From Deltaproteobacteria bacterium (GTDB lineage: Bacteria; Desulfobacterota; Desulfobacteria; Desulfobacterales; C00003060), in the NCBI GenBank assembly GCA_030665585.1, contig DAOUZN010000003.1:1-35215 (forward strand): a DNA stretch of 35,215 bases, in the 5' to 3' direction. Both the position numbers and the translations under genes were made by a program. Position 1 is the stretch's first letter. Each line of letters starts with the position of its first letter. The notes beneath the pieces are model-generated. The model did not search any database. It saw nothing but the letters and a program-made list of their open reading frames with translations, and was not told where the DNA came from. Positions 14,118-31,817 of this stretch are shown piece by piece.

Positions 14118-15140
14118 ATGGAACTGCCTATACATAAAATTGCAGCACTTGTTGATGGCGAGGTCGTGGGAGATGTCGATCGCGTCATTCGGGGTGTTGC
14201 TGGATTTGATGAGGCCGGCCCCGATGACATCACCTTTGCCACATCTCCAGAGTATAGGCAACGGATTGATGAGACCGGTGCCGCGGCAGTCATAGTCCCG
14301 TTTGAGGTTCGCCAATCCGAGAAGATCCTTGTGCGGGTTGAGAATCCCTATTTGGCCTTGGCAAAGGTGTCCAGCTTGTTCCATGGCGTTTTCCAGCCCG
14401 GGGCTGGTATCAGCCAACAGGCCTGGGTGGGCGACAACTTCAGGGGCGGCAAAGCCATCTCCGTATATCCGGGCGTGTTTATTGGAGACGACGTGACGCT
14501 GGGTGACCGTGTGACCTTGCATCCCGGCGTCGTGGTTGGTGAGGGCGTTGAGATGGGAGATGATGTCACGGTGCATCCCAACGCATCCGTTCTGGAACGT
14601 TGCCGAATCGGAAGCAGGGTTTTGATCCATGCGGGTTCTGTGATCGGCAGCGATGGCTTTGGCTTCGCGTCGGATGGAAATCAGTACCACAAGATTCCCC
14701 AGATCGGTATCGTCCAGATCGATGATGATGTGGAGATCGGGGCTTGTAACACGATCGACCGGGCCACGTTTGGACGAACCTGGATCAAGCGGGGTGTGAA
14801 GACAGATAATCTGGTTCACATTGCGCACAATGTGGTCGTGGGCGAGGATACGGTCCTTGTTGCCCAAGTAGGCATATCAGGCAGCGTGACGATTGGAAAC
14901 CGTGCCATCTTGGCGGGCCAGGCAGGGGTGGCACAACATGTCACCATTGGTCACCGTGTCACGGTCGGAGGCCAATCAGGGATTGTCAAGTCCATACCCG
15001 AGGGTCAGATTGTTTCCGGCTGTCCGGCCATGCCCCATCGGCTGTGGTTGAAAGCCTCGAATATCATACCCAAACTCCCGGATATGAAAAAGAAGCTGAA
15101 CGAGTTAGAGAGGCGAATTGAGAAACTGGAGAAGGCATAG
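14118..15140 (+). CDS. lpxD: UDP-3-O-(3-hydroxyacyl)glucosamine N-acyltransferase
   Basis: Hexapeptide repeats, GSDGFGF, KIPQIG, IDRATFG, DNLVHIAHN, C-terminal helix. Confidence 0.96.
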   Translation: MELPIHKIAALVDGEVVGDVDRVIRGVAGFDEAGPDDITFATSPEYRQRIDETGAAAVIVPFEVRQSEKILVRVENPYLALAKVSSLFHGVFQPGAGISQQAWVGDNFRGGKAISVYPGVFIGDDVTLGDRVTLHPGVVVGEGVEMGDDVTVHPNASVLERCRIGSRVLIHAGSVIGSDGFGFASDGNQYHKIPQIGIVQIDDDVEIGACNTIDRATFGRTWIKRGVKTDNLVHIAHNVVVGEDTVLVAQVGISGSVTIGNRAILAGQAGVAQHVTIGHRVTVGGQSGIVKSIPEGQIVSGCPAMPHRLWLKASNIIPKLPDMKKKLNELERRIEKLEKA

Positions 15141-15164
15141 AAAGTTGTTTGAGAGGAATGAGAC

Positions 15165-15611
15165 GTGGAAGTAGTATATGACATTCGAAAGATCATGGCG
15201 TTCTTGCCTCATCGGTATCCCTTTATTTTGGTTGATCGGATTGTGGAAATCGTACCCCATAAACGTATCGTCGGCCTCAAGAATGTGACCATGAATGAGC
15301 CGTTTTTCCAGGGACACTTCCCAGGAACGCCCGTCATGCCAGGGGTGCTGATTGTTGAAGCCATGGCCCAGGCAGGAGGTATCCTCGTTAATGTTTCTCG
15401 TTCGGAGGAGCAGCCGACAGAACTGATCTATTTCATGGGTATTGATAAGGCCCGTTTCAGAAAGCCTGTGATTCCAGGAGACCAACTCGTCCTTGATATA
15501 CTCTGGACTAAAAGGCGCGCAAACGTTTCCAAGATGAGCGGCAAGGCAACCGTGGATGGGACGCTGGTTGCGGAGGCTGAGGTCATGGCTATGACGGGAG
15601 AAAAGCCATGA
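15165..15611 (+). CDS. fabZ: 3-hydroxyacyl-ACP dehydratase
   Basis: [36 protein letters not shown]. Confidence 0.97.
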
Positions 15612-16381
15612 TACATCCCACGGCTGTGGTCGATTCCAGGGCTAAGATAGATTCTGATGTTGAAATCGGACCCTACGCTGTCATAGCCCGTGACGTCCAG
15701 ATACACGCCGGCACCATCATTGGTTCTCATGTGACCATTGACCAGGATACGACTATCGGTTCGGATTGTAAGATATTTCAGCATGCAGCCATAGGCGCCG
15801 TGCCTCAGGCTCTGAAATATCAAGGGGAAAGGACCTTCTTAAGGATCGGTCGTGGGACGACCATTCGAGAATTTGTGACGATTCACCGCGGAACCGCATT
15901 CGGCGGGGGGATGACCGAAATTGGAGAAGAGAATTTTCTGATGGCTTATACCCACATCGCCCATGATTGCTTTACGGGCCGAAAGGTGATCTTTGCCAAT
16001 GCGGCGAGCCTCGGTGGCCACATTAGGGTGGGAGATTGTGCGACGCTAGGTGCCTTTGTGGCGGTCCACCAATTTGTGCGAGTAGGAAATTATGCCTTTG
16101 TGGGAGCCATGAGCGGGGTGTCAAAAGACATTCCGCCCTACGTGCTTGCCTCGGGCTCACCCCGGGCAAAGCTTTACGGGCTGAACGTCATAGGGTTAAA
16201 GCGGCATGATTTTGTAAGGGAGACGATTGTTGCCCTCAAGAGGGCCTATCGTATCCTGTTTCGCTTTGGGTTGACCTTAAACGAAGCCATTGAAAGGGTC
16301 ACGGCGGAGGTGGATCAACTCCCAGAGATCGCTAATCTTCTGGCGTTTATCAAGTCCTCTGAGCGGGGGGTGACCAGATAG
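15608..16381 (+). CDS. lpxA: Acyl-ACP--UDP-N-acetylglucosamine O-acyltransferase
   Basis: IHPTAVV, PQALKY, IREFVTIHRGT, HIAHDC (catalytic His), HQF, DIPPY, GLN.IGLKR; 4-nt overlap with fabZ. Confidence 0.96.
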   Translation: MIHPTAVVDSRAKIDSDVEIGPYAVIARDVQIHAGTIIGSHVTIDQDTTIGSDCKIFQHAAIGAVPQALKYQGERTFLRIGRGTTIREFVTIHRGTAFGGGMTEIGEENFLMAYTHIAHDCFTGRKVIFANAASLGGHIRVGDCATLGAFVAVHQFVRVGNYAFVGAMSGVSKDIPPYVLASGSPRAKLYGLNVIGLKRHDFVRETIVALKRAYRILFRFGLTLNEAIERVTAEVDQLPEIANLLAFIKSSERGVTR

Positions 16382-16418
16382 TCCCTCATCCCTGACCACC
16401 GTCTACTGACGAGTGACC

Positions 16419-17222
16419 ATGATCGAACGGATTGGACTCATTGCAGGGAGCGGGCAGTTCCCCATCATTTTTTCAAGGGCGGCAGCGAGAAAAGGCCTGA
16501 GGGTCTATGTGGTGGCCCATGAGGGAGAAACAGAGGCTCGTTTGGAAACCCTTGTGGAGGCGACAAAGTGGATCAAGCTCGGTCAACTGAAGCAACTCAT
16601 TGCATTCTTTAGGCACCATGGCGTGAAGGATGCCGTGATGGCGGGGGCCGTAACCAAGACCAAGATGTTTGCCGACGTGAGGCCGGATCTTAAGGCCCTG
16701 AAGGTCCTGGCCACGATGGACCACACGCAGGATGACGGTCTTTTGCGCGCGTTTGCAGGGGAGCTGGAAAAAGAAGGCATCACGATTCATGCCCCAACCT
16801 TTTTGGTGCCGGGCCTGTTGGCTTCGCAAGGATGCTGGACACGGCGCAGACCCTCCGTGTCGGAAATGGCTGATGTTCACTTCGGATGGCGCATCGTCAA
16901 GGAGATCGGAAAGCTCGATATTGGCCAGGCCGTCGTCGTTCGCAACGGGTCGGTGATGGCGGTGGAGGCGATTGATGGCACGGACGCCACCATCCGGCGG
17001 GGCGGAAAGCTCGGCAAGGAAAAAACGGTCGTTGTGAAGGCAAGCAAGCCCGGCCAGGACATGCGATTTGACATGCCGGCCGTCGGTGTTAAAACCATTG
17101 AGATCATGCGCGATGTTGGCGCCTCGGTCGTGGCTGTTGAGGCAGGCAAGACGTTGGCCTTTGACAAGGAAGAGATGGTCGCCCTTGCCGATGAGCATGG
17201 CATTGCCATCATAGGACTATAA
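16419..17222 (+). CDS. lpxI: UDP-2,3-diacylglucosamine diphosphatase LpxI
   Basis: IGLIAGSGQFP, DIGQAVVV, AVEAIDGTD, KPGQDMRFDMPAVG; lies after lpxA. Confidence 0.93.
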   Translation: MIERIGLIAGSGQFPIIFSRAAARKGLRVYVVAHEGETEARLETLVEATKWIKLGQLKQLIAFFRHHGVKDAVMAGAVTKTKMFADVRPDLKALKVLATMDHTQDDGLLRAFAGELEKEGITIHAPTFLVPGLLASQGCWTRRRPSVSEMADVHFGWRIVKEIGKLDIGQAVVVRNGSVMAVEAIDGTDATIRRGGKLGKEKTVVVKASKPGQDMRFDMPAVGVKTIEIMRDVGASVVAVEAGKTLAFDKEEMVALADEHGIAIIGL

Positions 17223-17234
17223 TCTGGGCGAGCT

Positions 17235-18209
17235 ATGAAACCATTACGTGTCGGAGTCATAGGGGTTGGATATCTCGGAAAGTTTCATGCCGAGAAATAT
17301 GCCCGCATGAAGGGCGTTGAGCTCGTGGGCGCGGTGGACGTCGTCGCTGAAAGGGCAGAACGTGTTGGAAAACGATTGGGGACCGAATCGTTTACCGATT
17401 ACAGGGATCTCATCGATCAAGTCGATGCCGTAAGCGTGGTTGTGCCCACGCCCCTTCATTTTCCCATTAGCCGTGATTTCTTGGAACATGGTGTCGACGT
17501 ATTGATCGAAAAGCCCATAGCACAGACGCTTGAAGAGGCGGAGGTCCTCATAGAGGTTGCTGCTTCCCGTGGCTTGGTGATCCAAGTGGGCCACCTGGAG
17601 CGATTCAATCCTGCTGTTGTCGCCCTGACCAACGTGATAGACCGACCCTTGTTTATAGAGTCTCACCGCTTGAGTGTTTTTAAGGAACGGGGGACCGAAG
17701 TAGACGTGGTTCTGGATCTCATGATTCATGACATTGATATCATATTAAGCCTTGTGAAGTCCCAACTGCAGCACATTCACGCAGCCGGGGTTCCGGTCAT
17801 ATCTTCACGTGTGGACATCGCCAACGCACGCTTGACGTTTGAAAACGGTTGTGTCGCCAATGTGACTGCCAGCCGTATTTCACTGAAGAATATGCGCAAG
17901 ATACGCATCTTTCAGAAGGACACATACGTTTCCGTAGATTATTCAAACCGCGACATTACCATCATCCGCAAAGATGGCCAGGGAATCGACCTTCCCATCC
18001 CGGGGATGTCCATGGAACGATCAATCTTTGAAAAAGCCGATGCCCTAGAGGCCGAGATCGGGTCATTTGTGGACGCGGTGAGGACTCGGCAGGCTCCATT
18101 GGTCTCAGGGCACGATGGGCGAAACGCTCTTGGTGTTGCCTTGGATATCATTGATCAGATTGAGGCAAGCAGGAAGAAGGTTCTGACGGAAGAGAGCCTG
18201 TTGAGCTAG
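17235..18209 (+). CDS. gnnA: Gfo/Idh/MocA oxidoreductase, GnnA-like (UDP-GlcNAc 3-dehydrogenase)
   Basis: GVIGVGYLG, VPTPLH, LIEKP, QVGHLERFNP, DLMIHDID; position between lpxA/lpxI and lpxB matches gnnA. Confidence 0.75.
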   Translation: MKPLRVGVIGVGYLGKFHAEKYARMKGVELVGAVDVVAERAERVGKRLGTESFTDYRDLIDQVDAVSVVVPTPLHFPISRDFLEHGVDVLIEKPIAQTLEEAEVLIEVAASRGLVIQVGHLERFNPAVVALTNVIDRPLFIESHRLSVFKERGTEVDVVLDLMIHDIDIILSLVKSQLQHIHAAGVPVISSRVDIANARLTFENGCVANVTASRISLKNMRKIRIFQKDTYVSVDYSNRDITIIRKDGQGIDLPIPGMSMERSIFEKADALEAEIGSFVDAVRTRQAPLVSGHDGRNALGVALDIIDQIEASRKKVLTEESLLS

Positions 18210-18466
18210 TGCCGTGCGTGCCTCGTCTGTGGGTTGGGTCCTTTGTCAAGAATCTTTGCCGCAGACCGAACCTCGAAACAAGCCCCGAAACGACAACGAT
18301 TTCACGATACTGTTGCAGGTTCCAAGTTGGCTGCTCCCAGGGTTGGACGCACCCGAATGAATGCATTGAGACCTTTGAAAAACTGCTTCGCACTTATTCC
18401 TACGAACTTTTTGACCCATCTGCGGGCAGCCTTGGGCTCTTTACGGCCGGGCGAATCTACGGTTAG

Positions 18467-19606
18467 GTGATGGACGGAACACGAAAGGTCATGATTATTG
18501 CCGGAGAAGCGTCCGGTGACATTCACGGTGCGCGCCTGGTGAAGGCGATGCAGGCACTCAGTCCCGGGCTTGAGTTTTTCGGCATAGGTGGCAGTGTCCT
18601 TCGCCAAGCAGGCGTCCGCATAAGCGTTGATAATTCTCAAATCGCTGTCGTCGGGATTTCGGAAGCCCTCTCAAAGCTTAGAATACTTCTCAGGGCCCTC
18701 AAGATTGCCAAAGAAGATTTGAAAAGAATCCGCCCAGATCTTCTCATTGTTATCGATTTTCCAGATTTTAACCTGCGCGTTGCCACGGTGGCGAGGAAAC
18801 TGGGTATCCCGGTGATGTACTACATTGGCCCTCAGATATGGGCATGGCGCACCGGGAGGGTGAAAAAGATTAAGAAGGTGGTTGACCACATGGTGGTGAT
18901 CTTCCCTTTCGAGGCAGCCTTTTACAGGACAAACCATGTGCCTGTGACCTTTGCAGGGCATCCTTTGCTGGACGGCATGGTGCCCATAAGATCCGGACAG
19001 ACGAAGGAGAATCTTACGGCGAACGGCTCCCTGATAGGACTGTTGCCTGGAAGCCGAAATGAAGAGATTAGACGTCTCCTTCCGACGATGGTTCAGGTCG
19101 CCGATATTCTGTCTGAACACATGCCGGGTATCCGTTTTGCGATACCCGTGGCCTCTTCGGTGGACAGGGCATTGGTGGAGACCATTGCCGAGGGGGGGGC
19201 GACACGGTTTCTGATCCTGTCAGATAGGCTTCGAAACATCCTGGATGAGGCCACGTTGCTTATCACGGCTTCCGGGACGGTGACCCTGGAGGCAGCCATA
19301 GCCGGAACGCCCATGATCATCGTGTATAAAGTGTCTCATTTGAGTTATTGGCTTGCAAAGCGTCTGGTACGGGTCAAACACATTGGCCTGGCCAACCTGG
19401 TCGCTGGTAAGACGGTGGTGCCGGAATTGATTCAGCGCGAAGCCTCGGCAGAGAAGATTGCTGGCCAGGCATTACAGTTGCTCAGAGATGAGAACAGGCT
19501 TGCTGAGATGCGGCACCAACTGAACCGTGTTGCCCAGAGCTTGGGCCCGCCCGGCGCTTCCAAAAGGGCCGCACAGGTTGCGATGAACCTGCTTTCGGGC
19601 AACTGA
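18467..19606 (+). CDS. lpxB: Lipid-A-disaccharide synthase
   Basis: AGEASGD, IDFPDFN, PQIWAWR, FPFE, GHPL, LLPGSR..E, SGTVTLE. Confidence 0.97.
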   Translation: MMDGTRKVMIIAGEASGDIHGARLVKAMQALSPGLEFFGIGGSVLRQAGVRISVDNSQIAVVGISEALSKLRILLRALKIAKEDLKRIRPDLLIVIDFPDFNLRVATVARKLGIPVMYYIGPQIWAWRTGRVKKIKKVVDHMVVIFPFEAAFYRTNHVPVTFAGHPLLDGMVPIRSGQTKENLTANGSLIGLLPGSRNEEIRRLLPTMVQVADILSEHMPGIRFAIPVASSVDRALVETIAEGGATRFLILSDRLRNILDEATLLITASGTVTLEAAIAGTPMIIVYKVSHLSYWLAKRLVRVKHIGLANLVAGKTVVPELIQREASAEKIAGQALQLLRDENRLAEMRHQLNRVAQSLGPPGASKRAAQVAMNLLSGN

Positions 19607-19618
19607 TGGGTCTTTCAT

Positions 19619-20296
19619 ATGGTTGGAGAATCCAATGCAAGGTCCGGGTTGAAGTGGTGGCTGGCCGGCTGGCTGGGGAAAGGTCTGGTAGACTTGATTT
19701 GCGGCACGATGCGGATCCGCGTTGTCGACTTCAACAAGGCCCGGGCGGAGATCGAGTCAAAGAGATTTATCCTAGCCTTCTGGCATTCGAGGATTGTGGC
19801 GATCAGCTACCTTTACCAGGGCTGGGGGGCCGCAATACTGGTCAGCAGCTCTGAGGATGGGGAGATCATGGCACAGATCCTTCAACGCCAAGGTCACGAG
19901 ACCATCCGCGGATCGACGTCACGTCACGGCGTTCGCGCCATGGCCAAGCTTATTAAGACGCTCAATGAAACGATTCGTCCTGGAGGCGTCGTCCCGGACG
20001 GTCCAAGAGGACCGCGGTTCAGGGTTCAGCCCGGCGTCATCACCCTGGCTCAGAAGACGGGCTGTCCTGTTGTGCCGATCAGCTACAGCGCCAAGCGGAT
20101 CAAGATCTTTGCAAGCTGGGATCGGTTTATTCTACCGTATCCTTTCACCGAGGGTCGCCTCATCTACGGCAGGCCCATATCCATGCCTTCTAAACTTGAT
20201 GTGGAGGAACAAGAGGTTTATCGCGTCAGGCTGGAAGAAGAACTTAATCGCATTACAAGGAAAGTAGACCATTACTATGGTCACGAGATAGCGTAG
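19619..20296 (+). CDS. DUF374 lysophospholipid-acyltransferase-family protein (LpxJ-like late lipid A acyltransferase)
   Basis: AFWH, SSSEDGE, IRGSTSRHG, PDGPRGP, SWDRF.LP.PF; located between lpxB and msbA. Confidence 0.85.
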   Translation: MVGESNARSGLKWWLAGWLGKGLVDLICGTMRIRVVDFNKARAEIESKRFILAFWHSRIVAISYLYQGWGAAILVSSSEDGEIMAQILQRQGHETIRGSTSRHGVRAMAKLIKTLNETIRPGGVVPDGPRGPRFRVQPGVITLAQKTGCPVVPISYSAKRIKIFASWDRFILPYPFTEGRLIYGRPISMPSKLDVEEQEVYRVRLEEELNRITRKVDHYYGHEIA

Positions 20297-20310
20297 CGTT
20301 ACGGTCAAAA

Positions 20311-20348
20311 ATCCCCTGTCCGCCTGAGGCGGACTGCGGGGGATCTTC
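20311..20348. repeat. Short REP-like hairpin
   Basis: GTCCGCC-TGA-GGCGGAC stem, flanked by ATCCCC and CTGCGGGGGATCTTC, which resembles the reverse complement of the 10.7-kb element. Confidence 0.55.
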
Positions 20349-20379
20349 AGTCCTTTCCTATTTTTCGTGTGGTGAGGTT

Positions 20380-22164
20380 GTGAGTGACAGAGACAACAGA
20401 GATTTAACGAAGATATGCCACCGGATTTTGGCACTTGTCAAGTCACAGTGGCCTCGCCTCGTCCTGGCCATGTTCTGTATGATGCTGGTAGCAGCGCTTA
20501 TTGCTGCCACGGCCTATCTTGTGAAACCCGTTTTGGACGAGATCTTTGTCAATCGAGACAAGAGGATGCTGCAGCTCCTTCCCCTTGCCATCATCATCAT
20601 CTATGTCCTCAGAGGGGGTGCGTATTTTGGCCAGGCCTATTTGATGAATTATGTGGGGCGTTGTATTATCAAGCGACTCCGTGACGACCTTTACAGTCAC
20701 ATTCAGATGTTGCCCCTGTCCTTTTTCCAGAAACATGAGACCGGTGTCTTGATGGCAAGGATCATGAACGACGTTAACCTTGTGAAGGGGATGGTCTCTG
20801 ATGCGGTCACGGGGGTGTTAAAAGATTTCTTTTCAATCCTAGGCCTCCTGTTTGTCATCTTTTACCGAGACTGGGTCCTGGCCTTGATTGCGATCACTGT
20901 TTTACCAGTGGCTGTGATCCCCATCGTAAAGTTTGGCAGGCGAATGCGGAAGTTGAGCACCCGGTGCCAGGAGGCCATGGCGGATATGAGCTTCCTCCTT
21001 CATGAAACCTTTACAGGCACTAGAATCGTAAAAGCCTTTGGCATGGAAGCCCATGAAAACCGCCGTTTTTTTGAAAAAACCGCTCGTTTGTTTAAATACG
21101 AAATCAAGGCCGTCATCGTCAGGGCCATGTCTTCGCCTGTCATGGAACTGCTGGGCGGCATTGGCATTACGTTTATTATTTGGTACGGCGGACACAAGGT
21201 CATTACAGGCACATCGACACCAGGGACTTTCTTTTCCTTTATGGCGGCCCTGATCATGTTGTATGAGCCGATCAAAAGGATCAGCAGACTGAATAATGTC
21301 ATTCAGGAAGGGCTGGCTGCCGCTGTTCGAATCTATGATATCCTCGACACCGATTCGGACATCCAGGAGTCGCTGGACGCTGTCGCGCTTAAGGGCGGGC
21401 GGCATTCCGTGGTTTTTCGCAATGTTTCTTTCAAGTACGAGGACCAGATGGTCCTCAGAAACATCAACCTTAGGGTTAAGAACGGCGAAATCGTTGCCTT
21501 GGTGGGCATGAGCGGCGGGGGAAAGACCACCTTGGTGAATTTGATTCCTCGCTTTTATGATGTCACCGAAGGGGCGATCCTCATTGACGGGCAGGATGTC
21601 CGGGATGTGAGCATTGCCTCGCTTCGCAGCCACATCGGGATCGTGACCCAAGACCCCATGCTTTTCAATGATACCATTCAAAACAATATTGCCTATGGAA
21701 GACTTGATGCCTCCGAGTCGGACATCGTTGCAGCTGCTAAGGCCGCCTATGCTTATGATTTCATACAGAATTTTCCGGACCGGTTCGGTACTGTGGTGGG
21801 CGAAAAGGGCGTGAGGCTGTCCGGGGGGGAAAAGCAGCGCATCTGCATTGCCCGTGCGCTCTTGAAGAATGCACCTATCTTGATCCTGGATGAAGCGACT
21901 TCTTCACTAGATACTGAGTCGGAGTTAGCCGTTCAGGGTGCCCTCGAAAACCTCATGAAGGGTCGCACGACCCTTATCATCGCCCACAGGCTCTCCACGA
22001 TTCGACACGCTGATCGGATCATCGTGATTGTGAACGGAAGGATTGTAGAAGAGGGCAAACACGAAGAACTCTTGGCTCTCCATGGCGAGTATTTTAAACT
22101 TCACGACATGCAATTTGAAAACAACAACGATCAAAAGGCACATGAAAGTCAACAGCACGGTTAA
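20380..22164 (+). CDS. msbA: Lipid A/LPS flippase ABC transporter MsbA
   Basis: TMD plus NBD; GMSGGGKTT, LIPRFYD, LSGGEKQR, ILDEATSSLD, IAHRLST; lipid A gene context. Confidence 0.92.
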   Translation: MSDRDNRDLTKICHRILALVKSQWPRLVLAMFCMMLVAALIAATAYLVKPVLDEIFVNRDKRMLQLLPLAIIIIYVLRGGAYFGQAYLMNYVGRCIIKRLRDDLYSHIQMLPLSFFQKHETGVLMARIMNDVNLVKGMVSDAVTGVLKDFFSILGLLFVIFYRDWVLALIAITVLPVAVIPIVKFGRRMRKLSTRCQEAMADMSFLLHETFTGTRIVKAFGMEAHENRRFFEKTARLFKYEIKAVIVRAMSSPVMELLGGIGITFIIWYGGHKVITGTSTPGTFFSFMAALIMLYEPIKRISRLNNVIQEGLAAAVRIYDILDTDSDIQESLDAVALKGGRHSVVFRNVSFKYEDQMVLRNINLRVKNGEIVALVGMSGGGKTTLVNLIPRFYDVTEGAILIDGQDVRDVSIASLRSHIGIVTQDPMLFNDTIQNNIAYGRLDASESDIVAAAKAAYAYDFIQNFPDRFGTVVGEKGVRLSGGEKQRICIARALLKNAPILILDEATSSLDTESELAVQGALENLMKGRTTLIIAHRLSTIRHADRIIVIVNGRIVEEGKHEELLALHGEYFKLHDMQFENNNDQKAHESQQHG

Positions 22165-23317
22165 CAGATATATTTTTGGGGAGATGATACCGCCCTTTGT
22201 CATCAGCTTGATCTTGTTCACTTTCATTTTTTTGATGGCCAGGATACTCCGTATTACCGATCTCATCGTGAACTATGGCGTCAGTCTGTCGTCCGTCCTC
22301 CTCCTGTTGATTTACGCCACGCCTTCTTTCCTGATTTTTGTTCTTCCGATGTCCATCATGATGGGTGTGCTCCTGGGTTTCCTGAGGTTGTCTCACGACA
22401 ATGAGGTCATTGCCTTGAAAGCAGGTGGGTTTAGTGTCTACTGGCTTCTTCCTCCTGTTTTTGTTTTTTGTCTCATCGGGTGTTTGTTGACCGGCTTTGT
22501 CTCTATATACGGCTCTCCGCGGGGAAGACTTTCTTCCAAGGCCTTACTGCTTAAAACCGCAACATCGAACATTGACATAGGGTTAAAAGAGAGGACGTTC
22601 ATCGACCGTTTTAGTGGTGTTATGCTTTATGTGAGTCAAATCGATACGCAGGACAAGACCCTCATCGATGTCTTCATTGAAGACCGGCAAACGCCGGGAA
22701 TGGTAAACACGGTTATTGCGCCCAGGGGGAAGTTTCTCTTCGATGCGGAAAGCCTTACCTTCCAGTTGTCACTGTTCAATGGGATGATCAATGAAGTCGA
22801 TCAGAAGAATGGGACCGTACATTCTATTAGCTTCGACACCTATGATTTTAACCTTAACCTCGCCCGGGTTCTGTCTGCAAGAGAGCAAGGCCAAAAGGGC
22901 AGAAAAGAAATGAGTTTGGTAGAATTACGCCAGAGTCTAGAGGCCGCTAGCAGGAAAGATGCAAAATACTACTTGACCTTGATGGAATATCACAAGAAAT
23001 TTTCCATCCCCTTTGCGTGTTTTGTCCTTGGACTGGTCGCAGTTCCCTTGGGGATTCAATCAAGATCTGCAAAGAGGTCTTTTGGCATGGTTCTGGGTTT
23101 GCTCTTCTTTCTCATTTATTATGTGTTGATGTCCGTGGGCATGGTTCTTGGTGAGACCGGGGCGTGTCCGCCCGTTATCGGCATGTGGGGCCCCAACTTG
23201 GTGATGGGCACGATTGGTATGTACCTTCTCCTCTCGAGCGCAAAGGAGCGCCCCCTAAAGGCCATTTCACTATTGCCAAGGATATTCATGTCACCTAAAT
23301 CAGCGTGCATAGAGTAA
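22142..23317 (+). CDS. lptF: LPS export ABC permease LptF
   Basis: NRYIFGE, RLSHDNEVIALKAGG, EYHKKFSIPF, WGPN; ATG 22142 overlaps the msbA end. Confidence 0.9.
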   Translation: MKVNSTVNRYIFGEMIPPFVISLILFTFIFLMARILRITDLIVNYGVSLSSVLLLLIYATPSFLIFVLPMSIMMGVLLGFLRLSHDNEVIALKAGGFSVYWLLPPVFVFCLIGCLLTGFVSIYGSPRGRLSSKALLLKTATSNIDIGLKERTFIDRFSGVMLYVSQIDTQDKTLIDVFIEDRQTPGMVNTVIAPRGKFLFDAESLTFQLSLFNGMINEVDQKNGTVHSISFDTYDFNLNLARVLSAREQGQKGRKEMSLVELRQSLEAASRKDAKYYLTLMEYHKKFSIPFACFVLGLVAVPLGIQSRSAKRSFGMVLGLLFFLIYYVLMSVGMVLGETGACPPVIGMWGPNLVMGTIGMYLLLSSAKERPLKAISLLPRIFMSPKSACIE

Positions 23318-23468
23318 TTTTCATCTGCAAGGAGCCGCTTGTCCGTCCACGCGCTTTTCCACTCCGAGACATGACATATTCCAGGATGGTTTATATTGAG
23401 GCCGGTTTCACCCGTATGGACTGCATGGCCCGGTGCGAGCAGTTTTCGCTCCAACATGATCGGACAGG

Positions 23469-24566
23469 ATGGGGATTGCAAAAGTGAGTCTTTCGACCAT
23501 CCACAGGTACTTGACCAAGGAATTGCTGAAGTACTTCTGTTTTGTACTCATGGCTGTTGTGGGCATCTATCTTGCCGTCGATTTCTTTGAAAAGGTAGAC
23601 GATTTCTTGGACGCCGAGGTGCCCCTCTCGAAGCTCGTTGTCTTTTTCGCACTCAGGATTCCTTTCATAGTGGCCCAGGTAACGCCAGTGGGCGTTTTAC
23701 TGGCTGTGCTCATCGTCTTTGGCCTCATGGTCCGGAATAACGAGATAGTGGCCTTGAAAAGCGGCGGAGTGAGGATCTCTTCCCTGTTCAAGCCTGTCCT
23801 TGTGACGGGATTAACATTTAGTGTCCTTGTTTTTTTCTTTAGCGAGGTGTTGGTCCCGATGACCATGGTGAGGGCAAATAAAATATGGCAAAGCGACGTG
23901 AGGAAAGGATCCGCGGTGGCTTCCAGGAAGAAGAATATCTGGATCAAAGGCAACCACGCCATTTTCCATATTACCTATTTCAATCCCTCGGATAAAACCA
24001 TATTCGGCGTGACGCTGAATTATTTTGACGGGCGCTTCCGCTTAGTCGGACGGGTGGATGCTGAAAAGGGTATTTACACGGGAGATAGATGGCGCTTATT
24101 CAATGTGGTTGAACAGGATCTGTTGACAGAGGATGGAAGCTACAAGGTATCGTGTCTAGAAGAAATCTCTGTAAAGCTCGAGTTTGTGCCAGAAGATCTG
24201 CTTACGGTTGTCAAGAAGCCTGAAGAAATGAGTTACAGCGAACTGGCTGCCTATATACAGAAGGTTGAAGAAGAAGGATACGATGCGACAAGCTATCGGG
24301 TTGACCTCATGGCCAAAATATCTTTTCCATTTGTTTGTGTGATCATGAGCTTGGTGGGGACTAGTTTAGCCTTCTGGAGAAAAAAGAAAGAAGGGTTCGC
24401 TGGGAGTATTGTTTACGGTATTGGGATGGCATTTCTCTATTGGACCCTTCACAGCTTCTGTTTGTCCCTGGGATATGGCGCGATGTTGCCACCTATCATA
24501 GCAGCATGGCTAACCAATGTGCTATTTGTATGTTTCGGCGTCGTCACATTACTCAAGGCCAACTGA
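23469..24566 (+). CDS. lptG: LPS export ABC permease LptG
   Basis: IHRYLTKE, NNEIVALKSGG, PEEMSYSEL, KISFPF, AAWLTN; start may be GTG at 23484. Confidence 0.9.
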   Translation: MGIAKVSLSTIHRYLTKELLKYFCFVLMAVVGIYLAVDFFEKVDDFLDAEVPLSKLVVFFALRIPFIVAQVTPVGVLLAVLIVFGLMVRNNEIVALKSGGVRISSLFKPVLVTGLTFSVLVFFFSEVLVPMTMVRANKIWQSDVRKGSAVASRKKNIWIKGNHAIFHITYFNPSDKTIFGVTLNYFDGRFRLVGRVDAEKGIYTGDRWRLFNVVEQDLLTEDGSYKVSCLEEISVKLEFVPEDLLTVVKKPEEMSYSELAAYIQKVEEEGYDATSYRVDLMAKISFPFVCVIMSLVGTSLAFWRKKKEGFAGSIVYGIGMAFLYWTLHSFCLSLGYGAMLPPIIAAWLTNVLFVCFGVVTLLKAN

Positions 24567-24633
24567 GCGAACCTTAAGGCTTCGCCCCCATTGGAGCCAT
24601 GTCGTTTATGCAACATTAGGGTAGAGTCAGGTT

Positions 24634-25914
24634 GTGATTATTTTGTACAATATCTTGTTTTCGATAACCATCGTCTTGGCCCTTCCCTTCATTTTTGTGA
24701 AGGTACTGACCTCTGAGAAGAGGCAAAAAACGGTTATCCGGCGCTTGCGCCCGGAAGCTTGCATCAGGGCCTCTGGGGCAAGACCCGTCTGGATTCACGC
24801 CCTTTCCGTGGGTGAGGTTCTGGCTTCCTCGTCCCTAATAAAACAGATAAAGAAGATTTGCGCCCGGCGGCCAGTCGTACTTTCAGTTTCGACGCTTACT
24901 GGTCATGAGGTTGCCAAGAGGCTACTTAAAAGCGATGTGGATGCTATCTTCTTTTTTCCCTATGACTTGGTCTGGTCGGTTAGAAAGACCACTGGATCTG
25001 TCGACCCTGGCATATTCATCCTGGTGGAGTCAGATATCTGGCCAAATTTCACATATGAGATGAAACGACGGCAGATTCCCTTCATCCTCGTTAACGGGAG
25101 GGTCTCACCCAGGTCTTTTTCGGGATACATGCGGCTTTCTTTTTTTATGAAACGTGTGTTTTTTAATATCTCAAGCATTTGCGCTCAGACTGAGATGGAT
25201 GCCAGACGGTTTGTTGCCCTTGGTGCGGCGCCGGACAGGGTTCACGTGACCGGAAATATCAAGTTTGATCAGCCACTGATCTCTGTCTCAGAAGAGGAAG
25301 TCGGGGAGCTAAGAGCGTCCGTGAGGATTAGCCCAACGGCTCGGGTATTTGTGGCCGGAAGCACCCATGAGGGAGAAGAGGCGATTCTTTTGCGTTGCTT
25401 TGAAGCCCTGAAAAGGGACTACCCGGACCTCGTCTTGGTGGTGGTGCCGCGGGACCCCAGACGGGCTGGGAGCGTCCAAGGGATGTTTAAGCAGGCTGGA
25501 CTTTTTGCCCCTTTGAGAACAGAATTGGGCAAGATGGATGTCGGCTTTGCACCAGAAGCCATCATTGTCGATACGATCGGAGAGCTGAGAAGACTTTATG
25601 CTATAGCCCATGTCGTCTTTGTGGGGAAAAGTCTGATCAATCTCGGCGGGCAGAATCCTCTGGAGCCTGCGGCTTTGAAAAAACCCATCGTCTTTGGGCC
25701 GCATATGTTCAATTTTGGACTCATTGCCGAACGTCTTGTCCGACAGGGGGGGGCTTTGCAGGTGGCAAACGAGGAGGAACTGCTGCGAGCGGTCAAAAAC
25801 CTGTTGGCTGACCCCAAGCGTTCCAACGCCATGGGGAAGAAGGCATATAACGTGTTTCATATGAACCGAGGGGCGCTTGAGAAGACCCTCGCTGTGATTG
25901 AGGGCTTTCTATAA
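24634..25914 (+). CDS. waaA: Kdo transferase
   Basis: WIHALSVGE, FPYD, ESDIWPN, TGNIKFD, AGSTHEGEE, DTIGEL, GGQNPLEPA, GPHMFNF. Confidence 0.96.
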   Translation: MIILYNILFSITIVLALPFIFVKVLTSEKRQKTVIRRLRPEACIRASGARPVWIHALSVGEVLASSSLIKQIKKICARRPVVLSVSTLTGHEVAKRLLKSDVDAIFFFPYDLVWSVRKTTGSVDPGIFILVESDIWPNFTYEMKRRQIPFILVNGRVSPRSFSGYMRLSFFMKRVFFNISSICAQTEMDARRFVALGAAPDRVHVTGNIKFDQPLISVSEEEVGELRASVRISPTARVFVAGSTHEGEEAILLRCFEALKRDYPDLVLVVVPRDPRRAGSVQGMFKQAGLFAPLRTELGKMDVGFAPEAIIVDTIGELRRLYAIAHVVFVGKSLINLGGQNPLEPAALKKPIVFGPHMFNFGLIAERLVRQGGALQVANEEELLRAVKNLLADPKRSNAMGKKAYNVFHMNRGALEKTLAVIEGFL

Positions 25915-25916
25915 CC

Positions 25917-27062
25917 ATGCATTCTCTCCGACCCAAGATAGAGCGGGTCATGATTGAAGGAGACGCGGCTTCTCCAGCCTTTTCATCAGCTTTTGAATGG
26001 ATGCTTTACGCCTGTTCCCAGCTGTACCAACTAGCGGTAAGCGTTAGGATTTATCTATATGAGCGTGAGATTTTTAGCCAGAACAGCCTGCCGTGCAAGG
26101 TGGTATCCATAGGCAATATAACCGTGGGGGGCACTGGGAAGACCCCTATGGTGTCCTATGTGGCAAATCTGTTGAGTGGGCTTGGTCTCAAGGTGGCGGT
26201 TATCAGCCGGGGATACGGGGGCCATGCCCAACGGTCGGGAGGCATTGTTTCAGACGGCAAGACCACATTGATGGGACCCCGGGCCTCAGGGGACGAGCCT
26301 CAGCTTCTAGCTTCAAGGCTCAAGGGAATCCCTTTGCTTGTTGGAAAGGACCGCTATCTGGCCGGCAAACAGGCCATGAGCAGGTTCGGGGCATCCGTCC
26401 TGGTCCTTGATGATGGTTTTCAGCACCTGGCCTTGAAAAGGGATGTGGACCTATTGCTTATTGACAGCGCCCGGCCTTTTGGAAACGGTCATTGCGTGCC
26501 AAGGGGGCCACTGCGAGAACCTGTGAGCGGGATAAAGAGGGCCAGTGCTTTCGTCCTGACCCGATGGACAGGGGACAGCCCGTTGAACCGACAGCGCGAT
26601 GTACTCGAGGCCCATGCCCCGGGACGTCCGATTTTCAAATGTATGCATGTGCCTGAGACGCTGTTCGTGGCCGGACAAGAAAAGCCGATCGACTTAGCCA
26701 CCTTGAAGGGGCAAAGGCTTTTTGCATTTTCGGGCATTGCGAGAAACGAGGCCTTTCGTGAAACCGTTTCCAGCCTTGGAGGGGACGTCATTGGCTTCCT
26801 TGAGTTTTCAGACCATCATCGGTATACGAAGGATGATGTGGAATCCATTTGGAAAGGCGCCACGGACAAGGGCGTCGACGGCATCATTACAACGGAGAAG
26901 GATCTGGTCAATTTGGGCACCGACACGCCATCCATGCCGCTACTGTTGGTGCTGGGAATTCGCATCTCCTTTGGGGATGATGCAGAAGCGTTTGCGAGCT
27001 ACTTGAAGACCAAAATGATGGGGAACCCTCATATCGGGCGAGCCCTTCGCAAAAAGGGGTAA
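25917..27062 (+). CDS. lpxK: Tetraacyldisaccharide 4'-kinase
   Basis: SIGNITVGGTGKTP, SRGYG, GDEP, LDDGFQH, PRGPLRE, DHHRY, TTEKD. Confidence 0.96.
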   Translation: MHSLRPKIERVMIEGDAASPAFSSAFEWMLYACSQLYQLAVSVRIYLYEREIFSQNSLPCKVVSIGNITVGGTGKTPMVSYVANLLSGLGLKVAVISRGYGGHAQRSGGIVSDGKTTLMGPRASGDEPQLLASRLKGIPLLVGKDRYLAGKQAMSRFGASVLVLDDGFQHLALKRDVDLLLIDSARPFGNGHCVPRGPLREPVSGIKRASAFVLTRWTGDSPLNRQRDVLEAHAPGRPIFKCMHVPETLFVAGQEKPIDLATLKGQRLFAFSGIARNEAFRETVSSLGGDVIGFLEFSDHHRYTKDDVESIWKGATDKGVDGIITTEKDLVNLGTDTPSMPLLLVLGIRISFGDDAEAFASYLKTKMMGNPHIGRALRKKG

Positions 27063-28269: not shown

Positions 28270-28366
28270 CTATGTGGTTGACTAGCTGCGTCGTCATTTG
28301 TGAATGGGCAATAGAGAATTTTGACCGCTCAACCAGTTAACGGTTTCTACGAAAGGAGGTCCAATC

Positions 28367-28540: not shown

Positions 28541-28660
28541 GAGGGGCTGGCTGGAAAGCCCAAAACAAAATGGCTTGCGGGATGCTCGGTGTGGAAGGTT
28601 TTCTACAACGGTCCTGAATGCCTGGAAGGCCTGTGATTTTCAGAAAGGCATGGCATTTTG

Positions 28661-29269
28661 TCAGCTTAGATAACGCTTTTTGAGGCGGTTAAATTCACTT
28701 AACTCTTGGGTTGAGATTTCAAGGGTGTCTGAAGTTTCTTTCTCTTCTTTCGGCAGAGGCTCTTCTTGTTGCCCATCCTTTTCCATCGGCTCACCCTGGA
28801 TAAGTTTTTCAGGGGTCAAGGGCTGAAAATATACGGCTGGCTCGTCAAGGCCGTCGACTTGTAAGACGGCGTACTTGATCAGGTGGATTTTGGACTCCGT
28901 CCCCAAGACATGCATCAGGTTGCAGATTGAGGCGGAAAAGTCATGAGAGAAAAGATACATATCCAACCCTATCTTTCCATTGGCAAACATTTCACCCACC
29001 GTGACAAATTGCTTCAGCCAGACATAGTAAGACATTGACGAAATAATAAACTTTTCAGTCTCCTCTGCATCATTTAGCCTGGCAACGGTTAAGTGCGTTT
29101 TCCCCTGGTTGACAAATAATAAATCCGACGAACCAAACTGTGGAGAGGCAATGTTGTCTCCGAGAACGACGTCTTGACGGGACCCGGAATGCAGCAAAAA
29201 CTTCTTGGCGGCATCCATCAATTCCTCTTGCGGAACCGCCGTGGAAACAGCGTCATTGATTATTTTCAC
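28661..29269 (-). CDS. Hypothetical protein, probable degenerate NucS-like PD-(D/E)XK fold with acidic C-terminal tail
   Basis: GTG start with RBS AAAGGAG; overlaps the upstream gene by 17 nt. G.SDLLFV...LTV...Y..W...LF..DFS...I.LIKY pattern resembles the NucS C-terminal domain (fold is inference). Confidence 0.7.
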   Translation of the reverse strand: MKIINDAVSTAVPQEELMDAAKKFLLHSGSRQDVVLGDNIASPQFGSSDLLFVNQGKTHLTVARLNDAEETEKFIISSMSYYVWLKQFVTVGEMFANGKIGLDMYLFSHDFSASICNLMHVLGTESKIHLIKYAVLQVDGLDEPAVYFQPLTPEKLIQGEPMEKDGQQEEPLPKEEKETSDTLEISTQELSEFNRLKKRYLS

Positions 29270-30161
29270 CGTTGCCAGCTCCTTTCAGCAAAGTGTGATT
29301 TTTTTCGATCAGGCTGTCTGCCAGTTTCTTGATGGACTCAGAAAGGCGTGAATGTCCCGACTCCTGGAGCAAAGGTGTCTGTGTTAGGGTTGCCAGGGAC
29401 GGATGCGTCCCCTTGGGAATAGATCCCATGAAATGAATCTTGCACGAGAGAAACTTCTCGGCCATTTCCGACATGACCCTACACGCTGCCTCGGCCGGAG
29501 AGGAAACGTCTTCTTCCATGATCACGAGACCGACATCCGGACAAGACACATCTCGGGCGATTTGCTTGATGAGTTCATATGACTTCAAAAGGTCTTCTGA
29601 ACCCACGGTGGTGGGAACCACAAAAAAAGGATTGATAGCAGCGGTCACCTTCCCCGGGCCGAAGACGTCAGGAGATACGTTCATGATAAGAAAATCATTT
29701 GTACTCCTTAGTCTGTCCAAAATGGTCAAGAAATCTGCGGAATTAAGGTCTTTCTCCCAAAAGACGGCATTGATATTCTTGTAACCACCAAAGAGAAAGA
29801 AGGTGTTTGGGAGTCTGGCCGTCGTCTCAATGAGTCCTACGGAAAAGTCTCTTCTTGCCAATTCGAGGGCAAGATTGCAGGCAAGGAAGGACTTTTGCCC
29901 CGAAAGCCTCTTTGAAGCAGAAAAAAGGAGGCACAAATTCTCTTGGATTGGGGCCGTGCGGCCTGCGTTTTGGTGTGTTTCGGTTCGTGGAAGATCAACA
30001 GGCAATGGCGTGATGGCTTTACCATCAGCCTGGGCGACCTGCTTTCCGATGGCCTTTTCTCCTAGATTTTCGGGCCTTTCGCCGGACAGGAAGAAATGAG
30101 ACACTTCTTCCAGTGTCCTGCCCCTTTTTTCTCTATCTTCCATCGACGAGCAAGTAGACAT
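29253..30161 (-). CDS. Degenerate FlhG/FleN/MinD-like P-loop protein with N-terminal extension
   Basis: KSFLACNLALELA, LPN..FLFG, DFLIMN, VVPTT....L..SY.LIK, AEKFL.....GSIP and S..SESIKKLA follow the FlhG/MinD pattern, but Walker A and B are eroded; TAATG overlap with the parA stop. Confidence 0.75.
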   Translation of the reverse strand: MSTCSSMEDREKRGRTLEEVSHFFLSGERPENLGEKAIGKQVAQADGKAITPLPVDLPRTETHQNAGRTAPIQENLCLLFSASKRLSGQKSFLACNLALELARRDFSVGLIETTARLPNTFFLFGGYKNINAVFWEKDLNSADFLTILDRLRSTNDFLIMNVSPDVFGPGKVTAAINPFFVVPTTVGSEDLLKSYELIKQIARDVSCPDVGLVIMEEDVSSPAEAACRVMSEMAEKFLSCKIHFMGSIPKGTHPSLATLTQTPLLQESGHSRLSESIKKLADSLIEKNHTLLKGAGNGENNQ

Positions 30162-31240
30162 TACACGTTGATAACAGAATTTGTGCTCCCCAAGAGATTG
30201 TCCGCTCTTTTCTTGTTGCTCGGATCAGACACCCAACGGCCGTCAACCAGGTATTTGTATTGATAAAGGCCGGGGCTGAGGCGGATGGCTTTCTGCCACA
30301 CCGGTCTGCCATGGGAGTGAGTCAAATCAAGGCTCTCCGGTACCCAGTTATTAAAATCGCCAGCGATCTGCACCCCGGCGTCCTCGGGTGCCTCGATAAT
30401 GAACGCCACTTCTTTTTCCATGGGCTCTTTCACTTTTTCCTTGGCTTCCACAAAGGACTTCAGGGCGAAACCCTTGGCCTTCATCTTGGCTTCTTCCCTC
30501 AGGATCTCTTTCATCAACTGCTGATAATCCAGGAAGGCAGCGCAGTGTTGGTCGTATTCAGCTATGGGTTTCCCAGCGCTGGCAGCTTCTCTCAGGCGGG
30601 TGCATGTATTGATTTCGGTCTCAAAGCAGTTCCTGGGAAATCTGGCCCTGAGGGTCTCTACGACCCGGTTGCTGAAATTGGTCCTGCGGTCCATGTTGGT
30701 GGCCAGAATCCTGAAAGTGAGTTCGTGTCCAGCCTTGTCTTGAATGATCTGAATGGTTTCCAGAAGCTTTCCCAATCCGTTGAGAGAAAAGGAACTGGAA
30801 TCGACCGGAATGATGACCTCATCACATGCTATCAGCGCATTAAAGGTTAAGAGCCCCACGCTGGGAGGGCAGTCAATGATGAGGTAGTCGTAGTTGTCTT
30901 CAATCTCTTTAAGGCCCTGGGCAAGTGTAAATTCTCTCTCTGGGACGCCGGCCATGACTTGTTCAAAGGCGCTCAAGACGACGTTGCTGAAAACAGCATC
31001 AAGATTCTTTTCTAGGGTCTTTATGGCTTCAATTATTTGTATCTTACCTGACAAGACCTCATAGATGCTCTCTTCTATTTGATCAGGTTTCACGCCAAGA
31101 CCCAGCCCTGCATGCCCTTGGGGGTCTAGGTCGATCAGGAGCACCTTTCTGCCCTTTCCTGCTAGACAACTGGCTAGGTTTACCGCCGTGGTTGTCTTGC
31201 CGCACCCGCCTTTTTGATTAACGAGAGCCATTTTCCTCAT
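30161..31240 (-). CDS. Soj/ParA-family ATPase fused to a C-terminal CBM48 (AMPK-beta-like glycogen-binding domain)
   Basis: NQKGGCGKTT, IDLDPQG, IDCPPS, DRRTN, RLREA; C-terminal AGDFNNW, GLYQYKYLVDGRW, DPSN, LGSTNS; ATG 31240 with RBS GGAGG. Confidence 0.92.
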   Translation of the reverse strand: MRKMALVNQKGGCGKTTTAVNLASCLAGKGRKVLLIDLDPQGHAGLGLGVKPDQIEESIYEVLSGKIQIIEAIKTLEKNLDAVFSNVVLSAFEQVMAGVPEREFTLAQGLKEIEDNYDYLIIDCPPSVGLLTFNALIACDEVIIPVDSSSFSLNGLGKLLETIQIIQDKAGHELTFRILATNMDRRTNFSNRVVETLRARFPRNCFETEINTCTRLREAASAGKPIAEYDQHCAAFLDYQQLMKEILREEAKMKAKGFALKSFVEAKEKVKEPMEKEVAFIIEAPEDAGVQIAGDFNNWVPESLDLTHSHGRPVWQKAIRLSPGLYQYKYLVDGRWVSDPSNKKRADNLLGSTNSVINV

Positions 31241-31442
31241 GACGCTTTCCTCCCTTGTCATTGCTGGGCAGGAGAAAAAACCCCACATCTCCCCCCGGAT
31301 GGAGATTAGTTATCTAATATATTTGGGCACCTCCTCCTCGCGTATGATGGCTCAAACCGTTATGCGGCCCAGGTGACTGCCTACACCTCCCGATTGCCGT
31401 CTAAGCCCCTTGGGTTACAAGGATTGCAGCGAGAAAACGCTC

Positions 31443-31652
31443 TTATTTCGCTGTTCCATGGTTGTTGTTCAGCGATAGACAATCCCTTTTCCACAGGCAC
31501 GCTTGCTCCCCACAAGAGTCTACCCGCGTGGTGCCGAAGCAGTCGATATTGTTTTCTTTCCTTTGAATTGCCTGGATCATGTCCATCTTTTTCATTCTGA
31601 ACGTGTTAACGTCCATCTCTTTGGCCATTCTTTGAATCTCCTGAAATCTCAT
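31443..31652 (-). CDS. Small SAP/Rho-N-like helix-extension-helix protein with Cys motif (69 aa)
   Basis: MRFQEIQRMAKEMDV...MKKMDMIQAIQ..E.N.DCF......C....CLW..DC; RBS AAGGAGG. Confidence 0.85.
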   Translation of the reverse strand: MRFQEIQRMAKEMDVNTFRMKKMDMIQAIQRKENNIDCFGTTRVDSCGEQACLWKRDCLSLNNNHGTAK

Positions 31653-31817
31653 TTTGCCCTCCTTCACGTTGTAGGGTCATCGGCTATGGTATAACGCAAA
31701 AGTACAGGCCCCGATCCTCATAGGCCACTGACTTTTGTCGACATTTTCCCATTCAGCGACGAATCGAACAACAACCTCCTTTGTCTATATATTGCACCGA
31801 CTATTCTTTAGGCCACA

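Follow-up and report, generated by a model that had tools for sequence, protein, structure and literature searches.

Three overlapping genes in a 35,215-nucleotide (nt) stretch of DNA from a Deltaproteobacteria bacterium (contig DAOUZN010000003.1, positions 1 to 35,215, hereafter the window) encode a ParA-type ATPase fused to a C-terminal carbohydrate-binding module of family 48 (CBM48), an apparently degenerate MinD/FlhG-like protein (P2), and a protein that looks like an inactive member of the restriction-endonuclease fold (P3). The architecture is already catalogued computationally and is not new; the locus is a further member of the system described in a preprint as ParA-CBM. The account that we favor, although we stop short of calling it probable, is that these genes form a ParA-type system by which glycogen granules are coupled to the nucleoid and organized there.

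According to this account, the fusion would be an active ParA that forms ATP-dependent dimers and binds nucleoid DNA non-specifically, while its C-terminal CBM48 would load it onto alpha-glucan, i.e., glycogen granules. A ParB-like peptide at the N-terminus of the next gene product would stimulate ATP hydrolysis and release ParA from DNA. In the host the peptide would be carried by the dead P2, working with the inactive P3, and in sister genomes it would be provided by fusion directly to P3. Cycles of binding and release would then tether granules to the nucleoid and spread them, such that both daughter cells inherit them. Peptide-stimulated ATPase activity, a P2-P3 complex and an effect on granule position would all be expected from this scheme. 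A bolder claim, which we put forward with more reserve, is that this would be the first ATP-driven system dedicated to the partition of a polysaccharide storage granule, in which the ATPase is the cargo binder and a pseudo-ATPase/nuclease-fold or signaling adaptor tunes release from the nucleoid. If true, the layout, present in at least six phyla, would be the inverse of that in all ParA cargo systems investigated so far.

For carboxysomes, chemoreceptor arrays and division sites, active positioning is documented; we know of no demonstration for polysaccharide stores, and of no described mechanism by which glycogen granules are distributed and passed on in bacteria. The gene set is a concrete and widespread candidate for granule positioning, as the fusion was found in 77 of 80 loci from several phyla.

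The ParA-CBM48 fusion and the ParB-like motif of its partners

The ATPase domain of the fusion matches AAA_31 (E = 3.5e-56; 190 bits versus a Pfam cut-off of 27). KGGCGKTT, D37/D39 and D123 are invariant in 19 homologues, so that a deviant Walker A motif with its signature lysine and the aspartates of the A' and B motifs are present. The nearest solved structure is the chromosomal ParA of Myxococcus xanthus (8RAY, chain 8ray_B; E = 7e-52), followed by HpSoj of Helicobacter pylori and TtSoj of Thermus thermophilus, and at least 120 homologues align at 61-94% identity across 100% of the length. The arginine of TRLREA, also invariant, aligns with the VRLSE arginine of Soj-type proteins, a position that we take to have a role in DNA binding. 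Judging from this residue, the fusion ParA may bind DNA non-specifically in an ATP-dependent manner, like its Soj relatives. The ratio of nonsynonymous to synonymous substitution rates (dN/dS) of the domain is 0.07-0.20 in pairwise comparisons with six orthologues.

A quick tree separates the fusion clade from canonical ParA, with a Shimodaira-Hasegawa-like approximate likelihood ratio test (SH-aLRT) support of 99. A canonical ParA-ParB pair is encoded elsewhere in 32 of 37 genomes of the genus, fusion carriers included, and the fusion ParA is therefore an additional one. No ParB_N domain was found in the host genome, which is 83% complete, and incompleteness is probably the explanation.

Two further ParA-like genes were observed. 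ParA2, a paralogue without a CBM (approximately 45% identical, with an acidic C-terminal tail), is found in the host genome at G000:C40:7083-7841 (L025 5012..6067) and also in L023 and L024. In G022 and G020 it adjoins a convergent P3-like gene with the variant motif YG(I/L)D(R/Q)VAH(H/Y)FLS. At the host-genome locus, where ParA2 comes after apparent methylmalonyl-CoA mutase genes (read by eye), no P3-like neighbor was found. ParA2 nests inside the ParA-CBM clade of the tree, a position that suggests loss of its CBM. The other is a third, divergent ParA-like gene of 259 amino acids (aa) at G000:C135:4016-4795 (minus strand), directly downstream of a 753-aa dynamin-like protein (by eye).

The C-terminus of the fusion scores above cut-off for both AMPK1_CBM (40.7 versus 26.8 bits) and CBM_48 (25.7 versus 22.4 bits) in Pfam, and its last 70 residues align with the CBM of the beta1 and beta2 subunits of AMP-activated protein kinase (AMPK) at an E value of about 1e-8. 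In the alignment to AMPK beta1 (chain residues 91-155), W100, K126, W133, G147 and N150 are all matched. Across 20 fusions (35-61% identity), the residues corresponding to W100, K126 and W133 are invariant, and those corresponding to G147 and N150 nearly so. As stated in part of a review (PMC6274970), W100G and K126Q abolish glycogen binding of the AMPK beta module. The conserved contact residues make ParA-CBM48 a candidate glycogen binder. At 59-66% identity, the CBM is somewhat more variable than the ParA domain (72-76%), and its pairwise dN/dS is 0.17-0.51 against up to seven orthologous loci.

A short motif, (K/R)xxGRGLEEVSHFFLS, is present at the N-terminus of all 24 partner proteins inspected. 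Across 77 fusion loci of several phyla it heads the next gene in 24 cases by regular expression and in seven more by eye. In the two-gene form of the locus, which lacks P2, the same motif heads a longer P3, indicating that it moves between P2 (three-gene form) and P3; in the host genome, a search for the motif outside P2 found none. The domains that follow it vary as well, and include a pseudo-ParA, a restriction-endonuclease fold, HTH_17 with a coiled coil and sometimes a transmembrane helix, PAS and Response_reg. The canonical ParB of the genus begins MPKK.(A/V)LGRGLD(A/V)LIPD, sharing a GRGL(D/E) core with the partner motif, and the available part of a published study states that the N-terminal motif of ParB suffices to stimulate ParA (PMC12462528). 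Since this core is common to ParB and the motif is kept on the partner, we read the motif as the putative ParA-activating peptide of the ParA-CBM clade. A ParB-like peptide on pseudo-ParA, restriction-endonuclease-fold, helix-turn-helix, PAS and receiver proteins would moreover be a general handle for finding ParA partners.

Planctomycetota loci mostly lack the motif, and a secreted P_proprotein-like protein comes next instead; this branch may work differently. The protein in question (L083, L087, L090, L093, L094, L097-L099, L104, L116 and L117) has about 200-240 aa, a signal peptide, a proprotein-convertase P-domain and a C-terminal PEP-CTERM-like anchor. In a clade with an adjacent glgB (L029 4100..4996 (minus strand), L052, L053 and L056), the partner consists of the N-terminal motif, an HTH_17/MerR-like domain and a long coiled coil, to which longer forms add a C-terminal transmembrane helix; a DNA-to-membrane adaptor is a possible role for it.

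Partner proteins, distribution and genomic setting

In P2, Pfam detects CbiA alone, below threshold (E = 0.008), and CbiA matches occur in seven of 27 members of the family. An AlphaFold model of P2 (predicted local distance difference test score, pLDDT, 66.7) has FlhG (4rz2) as its best Foldseek match at E = 3.6e-11, followed by FleN, MinD and ParF, and a total of 374 PDB matches at E ≤ 0.001 places it in the SIMIBI (signal recognition particle, MinD and BioD) fold. Its P-loop reads SSxxLFAEKS, with the glycines lost, and the Walker B aspartate is replaced by an invariant asparagine (N161), leaving it without functional Walker A and Walker B motifs. Alignment of the P2 family with the ParA-CBM family by hhalign was not significant (probability 1.1%), and the case for a ParA-like P2 is therefore built on the fold matches together with the weak Pfam matches in seven of 27 members. 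From its motifs and its modeled fold, P2 is predicted to be a catalytically dead MinD/FlhG-like protein. The family comprises 61 clusters among 1.84 billion representatives, and the P2 fold has a pairwise dN/dS of 0.23-0.33.

P3 belongs to no Pfam family. Searching PDB with its model (pLDDT 77.5) by Foldseek gave nothing at E ≤ 0.001, and an Atlas search returned unnamed clusters only, plus a NucS_C lead in 34% of one cluster. A wide search with VIA-align placed PD-(D/E)XK nucleases on top, namely N.BspD6I, NucS, an XisH-like protein, Can2 and Card1, at Z scores of 8.0-9.4, which is a moderate and common range. Alignment and secondary structure show D49 to be invariant and the next strand, (V/C)A(R/K)L, to lack an acidic residue, so that no (D/E)xK follows D49; E72 on the following helix is nearly invariant. 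P3 may be an inactive protein of the restriction-endonuclease fold. Its net charge gave no support for DNA binding. The P3 family has 42 clusters, all at E ≤ 1e-10, among the same representatives, and the fold has a pairwise dN/dS of 0.20-0.39. All folded domains of ParA-CBM48, P2 and P3 are under purifying selection (dN/dS 0.07-0.51); P2 and P3 diverge faster than the CBM and the ParA domain, and the disordered linkers alone approach a dN/dS of 1.

The host genome encodes two copies of glgA, as well as glgB and glgC, all above cut-off. In G094, a 100% complete genome, the three genes lie 295 nt downstream, on the same strand, of genes for a debranching enzyme, a GT5 synthase, a GH57 protein and a Glycogen_syn-DUF3417-phosphorylase fusion, and no classical GlgA or GlgB was found in this genome. 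The latter fusion is a single 1441-aa polypeptide (L042 364..4689 (minus strand), on G094:C5) in which a Glycogen_syn domain of eukaryote type (E = 1.4e-107) is joined to DUF3417 and an alpha-glucan phosphorylase, so that synthase and phosphorylase are combined. In L029/L059, L060, L065 and L066, glgB abuts the unit in convergent orientation. By rough estimate, immediate adjacency in two independent lineages out of about two dozen is above chance, although not a general rule. In most loci no glycogen gene was found by BLAST, for which eight glycogen proteins served as queries, such that other families would be missed. Small stand-alone cytoplasmic CBM48 proteins of 95-122 aa were noted at G000:C6:58-285 (beside glgA), at G000:C135:530-874 and in L122 (after GT5 and GH57), and stand-alone CBM48 proteins also occur near ParA-CBM48 in L029, L030 and L031. 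The evidence tying the unit to alpha-glucan is real but circumstantial. This also applies to the proposal of the first-pass annotation that alpha-glucan is the cargo: the invariant contact residues and the adjacent glycogen genes in two lineages speak for it, and the case remains indirect.

Full-length ParA-CBM48 was found in 11 of 25 genus genomes searched and in none of 16 genomes from other families of the order, whereas P2 is present in 11 and P3 in 15 of 37 genus genomes. Fifteen loci were fetched, seven of which have the three-gene form and four the two-gene form (no P2, and a P3 of 250-282 aa). The gene uvrA lies upstream in six of the fetched genus loci and in the window. An even sample of the phylum (400 genomes) contained 14 genomes with the full-length fusion, at 39-71% identity, and the complete trio was found again in other families of the phylum (G365, G438, G094, G372, G166 and G260). 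By hhalign, the third proteins of distant loci are homologues of P3 (probability 90.8%, E = 1.2e-6). A scan across phyla was carried out with one genome per GTDB species and the CBM alignment as query, and 80 of 338 matching loci were kept. Their sources are Desulfobacterota, Planctomycetota, Acidobacteriota, Gemmatimonadota, Omnitrophota, Sulfuricaulis and others, with relatives of Desulfocapsa and Desulfobia represented, and in 77 of them the CBM and the ParA domain are in one open reading frame (ORF). Beyond the phylum, the unit is seen as ParA-CBM48 plus a motif-bearing partner. On the ParA tree, taxon labels cluster (11 changes versus a shuffled mean of 26.3) and Planctomycetota form one group at 100, which fits mostly vertical inheritance of ParA-CBM.

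Locus coordinates are collected in Table 1. The three co-oriented ORFs lie head to tail on the minus strand, according to the ORF listing and reading of the sequence. The stop codon of ParA-CBM48 and the start codon of P2 overlap in TAATG (30159-30163), and the P2 and P3 genes overlap by 17 nt (29253-29269). Both overlaps are kept in the closest relative, L013, where position 1453 is the end of ParA as well as the start of P2, and P3 begins at 2342, before the end of P2 at 2361. The first-pass annotation had described the same coordinates and overlaps, and it is borne out by our analysis in this respect as well as in its identification of an intact ParA fused to CBM48, a degenerate FlhG/MinD-like protein and a probably inactive nuclease-fold protein. 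The conservation of the trio, for which it had named a gene-neighborhood survey as a check, is likewise supported, with the trio or a pair of the genes recurring across the genus and families of the phylum. Finally, it had stated that parB and flagellar genes are absent from the window, and indeed no ParB or flagellar family was found by a Pfam scan of the 26 window ORFs.

Table 1. Coordinates in the window of the ParA-CBM48 locus and its features
Feature	Position	Strand	Details
ParA-CBM48 fusion gene	30161..31240	-	ATG at 31240 with ribosome-binding site GGGAGG; 359 aa; frame open to 31288; stop codon 30161-30163 included
ParA ATPase domain (aa 1-250)	30491..31240	-	Walker A KGGCGKTT (intact, deviant), Walker A' DLDPQG, Walker B IIDCPP
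CBM48/AMPK-beta-type module (aa 286-359)	30164..30385	-	Variable linker of ~35 aa to ParA
P2 gene	29253..30161	-	302 aa; predicted MinD/FlhG-fold pseudo-ATPase; N-terminal motif and ~50-aa disordered linker
P2 N-terminal motif RTLEEVSHFFLS	30084..30119	-	P2 aa 15-26; consensus (K/R)xxGRGLEE(V/I)SH(F/L)FLS
P3 gene	28661..29269	-	202 aa; GTG start, AAGGAG before start
P3 parts	within 28661..29269	-	Predicted restriction-endonuclease-like fold aa 1-155; disordered acidic linker; conserved C-terminal helix aa 184-202
Small Rho_N-like Cys-rich protein gene	31443..31667	-	Just upstream of ParA-CBM48; start probably second Met, ~69 aa; Rho_N E 4.4e-4, below cut-off

The small Rho_N-like gene is kept upstream of ParA-CBM48 in L013, L014, L015, L018 and L028 and tblastn did not find it in L020, L021, L022 and L027, the four loci of the two-gene form; its product may be a fourth, optional component. 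By eye, no signal peptide or transmembrane segment is seen in ParA-CBM48, P2 or P3. All three were judged cytoplasmic from sequence, and any sugar ligand would therefore be intracellular. The window further contains genes for LpxD, LpxA, LpxI, LpxB, KdtA, LpxK, MsbA, LptF/G, BamA, Skp, LysRS and UvrA. Among these is a long co-oriented envelope cluster at 14118..27062 (plus strand) of LpxD, LpxA, LpxI, an oxidoreductase, LpxB, DUF374, an MsbA-like ABC protein, LptF, LptG, KdtA and LpxK, with the BamA and Skp genes upstream of it. This cluster, ordinary in content, shows that the locus lies on the core chromosome. A promoter and terminator scan of positions 28200-32000 was uninformative.

Weighing of the explanations

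Several observations count against granule positioning. The CBM sits on the ATPase and not on an adaptor, unlike in every characterized ParA cargo system, and no structural prediction shows an interaction of the parts: a complex prediction with two copies each of ParA 1-258 and ATP plus P2 1-50 scored 0.16 versus a mark of 0.32, which gives no verdict and is not used as evidence. Several genus genomes that are at least 90% complete do not carry the fusion, which makes it dispensable. Co-occurrence with glg genes, which the first-pass annotation had named as a check, holds for the host itself but is not discriminating, as glgA is present in 13 of 14 sampled fusion carriers and in 310 of 401 genomes overall. 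Adjacent glycogen genes are limited to two lineages (five loci) of about 90 loci examined, and GH57 scored once among 150 neighboring ORFs from 32 loci. Furthermore, the fold domain of P3 shows no consistent basic character (median net charge -2), PAS, receiver and helix-turn-helix domains on the partners fit regulation as well as positioning, and the one literature account of the system (10.64898/2026.10.19.760177), in the passages available, favors an immune role.

Regulation could take the form of a glycogen-state switch, an explanation that we consider unlikely. The CBM48 would be a sensor as in AMPK, glycogen occupancy would alter ParA dimerization or ATPase activity, and the partners would relay this state to nucleoid organization, division timing or transcription, without positioning of the granules. 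Such a switch would suit the signaling and DNA-binding C-terminal domains of partners in several lineages (Response_reg, PAS, HTH_17), the combination of a constant CBM with a varying partner and the dispensability of the unit within the genus, and part of the review cited above reports that glycogen inhibits AMPK through the CBM (PMC6274970). The adjacency of glycogen enzymes fits switch and positioning equally. Against the switch, no conserved output domain or target is seen, and a ParB-like activating peptide combined with an intact Soj-like ATPase is a hallmark of spatial ParA systems. The immune role, which we judge slightly less likely again, was proposed in the bioRxiv preprint 10.64898/2026.10.19.760177 (22 Oct 2026). 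The passages available describe a "ParA-CBM" system, clade ConB5, of a ParA with a C-terminal AMPK1_CBM, the second variant of which adds a second ParA and a restriction-endonuclease-fold protein, both predicted to be inactive. On computational grounds only, carbohydrate sensing is proposed there to lead to ParA multimerization and thus to limit infection. In other words, the lectin-like CBM would detect an infection-related carbohydrate change, ParA would multimerize and limit the invader, and the inactive endonuclease would sense DNA. These passages place ConB5 among immunity-associated branches and cite rapid divergence of the CBM. With the latter our data agree in part, the CBM being less conserved than the ParA domain and P2 and P3 faster still, and the patchy presence within the genus also suits defense. 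However, no effector domain is present, and with PADLOC 2.0 ParA has only weak P-loop matches, while P2, P3 and the small protein encoded upstream have none. The window neighbors are lipid A, lipopolysaccharide export and uvrA genes, and among the 150 neighboring ORFs of the 32 representative loci no Pfam family exceeds four occurrences, the commonest being metabolic. Of 140 PADLOC families matched at E ≤ 1e-10, the 25 with the most matches hit only two neighboring ORFs each, most of these families being PD-T4-6 or kinase-labeled; we take the two ORFs for the two Pkinase proteins. Moreover, the dN/dS of the CBM and its invariant ligand residues, the same position after uvrA in six genus loci and the clustering of taxon labels on the ParA tree, as under mostly vertical descent, all run counter to immunity. 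A conserved ParA clade thereby sets immunity and granule organization in direct contest, and, if the immune explanation were true, it would imply a defense mechanism without a recognizable effector.

In characterized ParA systems, the partner and not the ATPase carries cargo specificity. This general knowledge lends some weight to the idea, improbable in our view, of a ParA system for another cargo, in which the CBM48-like module has been reused for protein contact or for another glycan and the variable domain of the partner sets the cargo, be it a DNA site, a membrane or a protein body. ParA2, which keeps a P3-like partner without a CBM and nests in the fusion clade, indicates that the partner module can work without the CBM. 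On the other hand, an unused sugar site would not stay invariant across phyla, and glycogen genes lie beside the unit in two lineages. By far the least probable explanation is a module for partition of a chromosome or plasmid, with P3, or P2 together with P3, in place of ParB as the centromere-binding protein. It could account for a ParB-like N-terminal peptide on a fold that binds DNA in other families, and for the failure to find ParB_N in the 83%-complete host genome. It is contradicted by the canonical ParA-ParB of 32 of 37 genus genomes, fusion carriers among them, by the chromosomal locus with its housekeeping neighbors and by a P3 that is not basic, and it leaves the CBM without a role. 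Chromosome partition was set aside because of the canonical ParAB in the genus, and a mobile-element origin because of the housekeeping gene context.

Relation to described systems

The first-pass annotation knew of no ParA system for glycogen. In literature searches we likewise found no characterized one, but the exact architecture is described, with an immune interpretation, in preprint 10.64898/2026.10.19.760177 and in no other source found. The locus corresponds to variant 2 of the preprint, with the identical set of a ParA-AMPK1_CBM, an inactive ParA and an inactive restriction-endonuclease fold (the latter at the moderate Z scores of 8.0-9.4), and the spread over several phyla agrees as well. 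The two accounts differ in the immune sensor role assigned there, and the passages available contain nothing on a ParB-like motif, a two-gene form, adjacent glycogen genes or invariant sugar contacts. New here are thus the ParB-like motif on the partners, the two- and three-gene forms, the adjacency to glycogen genes, the sugar-contact invariance, the selection data and the housekeeping neighbors.

Among characterized systems, chromosomal ParABS (Soj/Spo0J; M. xanthus 8RAY) has the most similar ATPase, and the partner of the fusion bears a basic-aliphatic N-terminal motif with the GRGL(D/E) core of the genus ParB. In contrast, this partner has neither a ParB/Srx CTPase domain nor a helix-turn-helix, the ATPase carries an extra CBM48, and a separate canonical ParAB exists in the genus; a ParB with a ParB/Srx domain was not found next to the fusion in any locus. 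The carboxysome system McdAB and the orphan ParA cargo systems PpfA, ParC and PomXYZ resemble the present one in having an additional ParA, a small, fast-evolving partner alongside and a non-DNA cargo, here a proposed one. The activating proteins of PomXYZ are moreover reported, in parts of two articles, to act through an N-terminal peptide (PMC13170346, PMC7993993). In all of these systems, however, the adaptor binds the cargo, whereas here the presumed cargo module is on the ATPase and the partner includes a pseudo-ATPase.

Outside the ParA family, the proposed attachment of a carbon store to the nucleoid, by which it would be inherited, has a parallel in PhaM of Ralstonia eutropha, a tether between polyhydroxybutyrate granules and the nucleoid; PhaM is not known to be an ATPase, and so would have no ParA cycle. 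The CBM48 itself is the same module as in AMPK beta, GlgB, GlgX and SEX4, with the glycogen-contact Trp/Lys/Trp retained, but in the present system its fusion partner is a candidate positioning ATPase, and not a kinase scaffold or an enzyme that acts on glucans.

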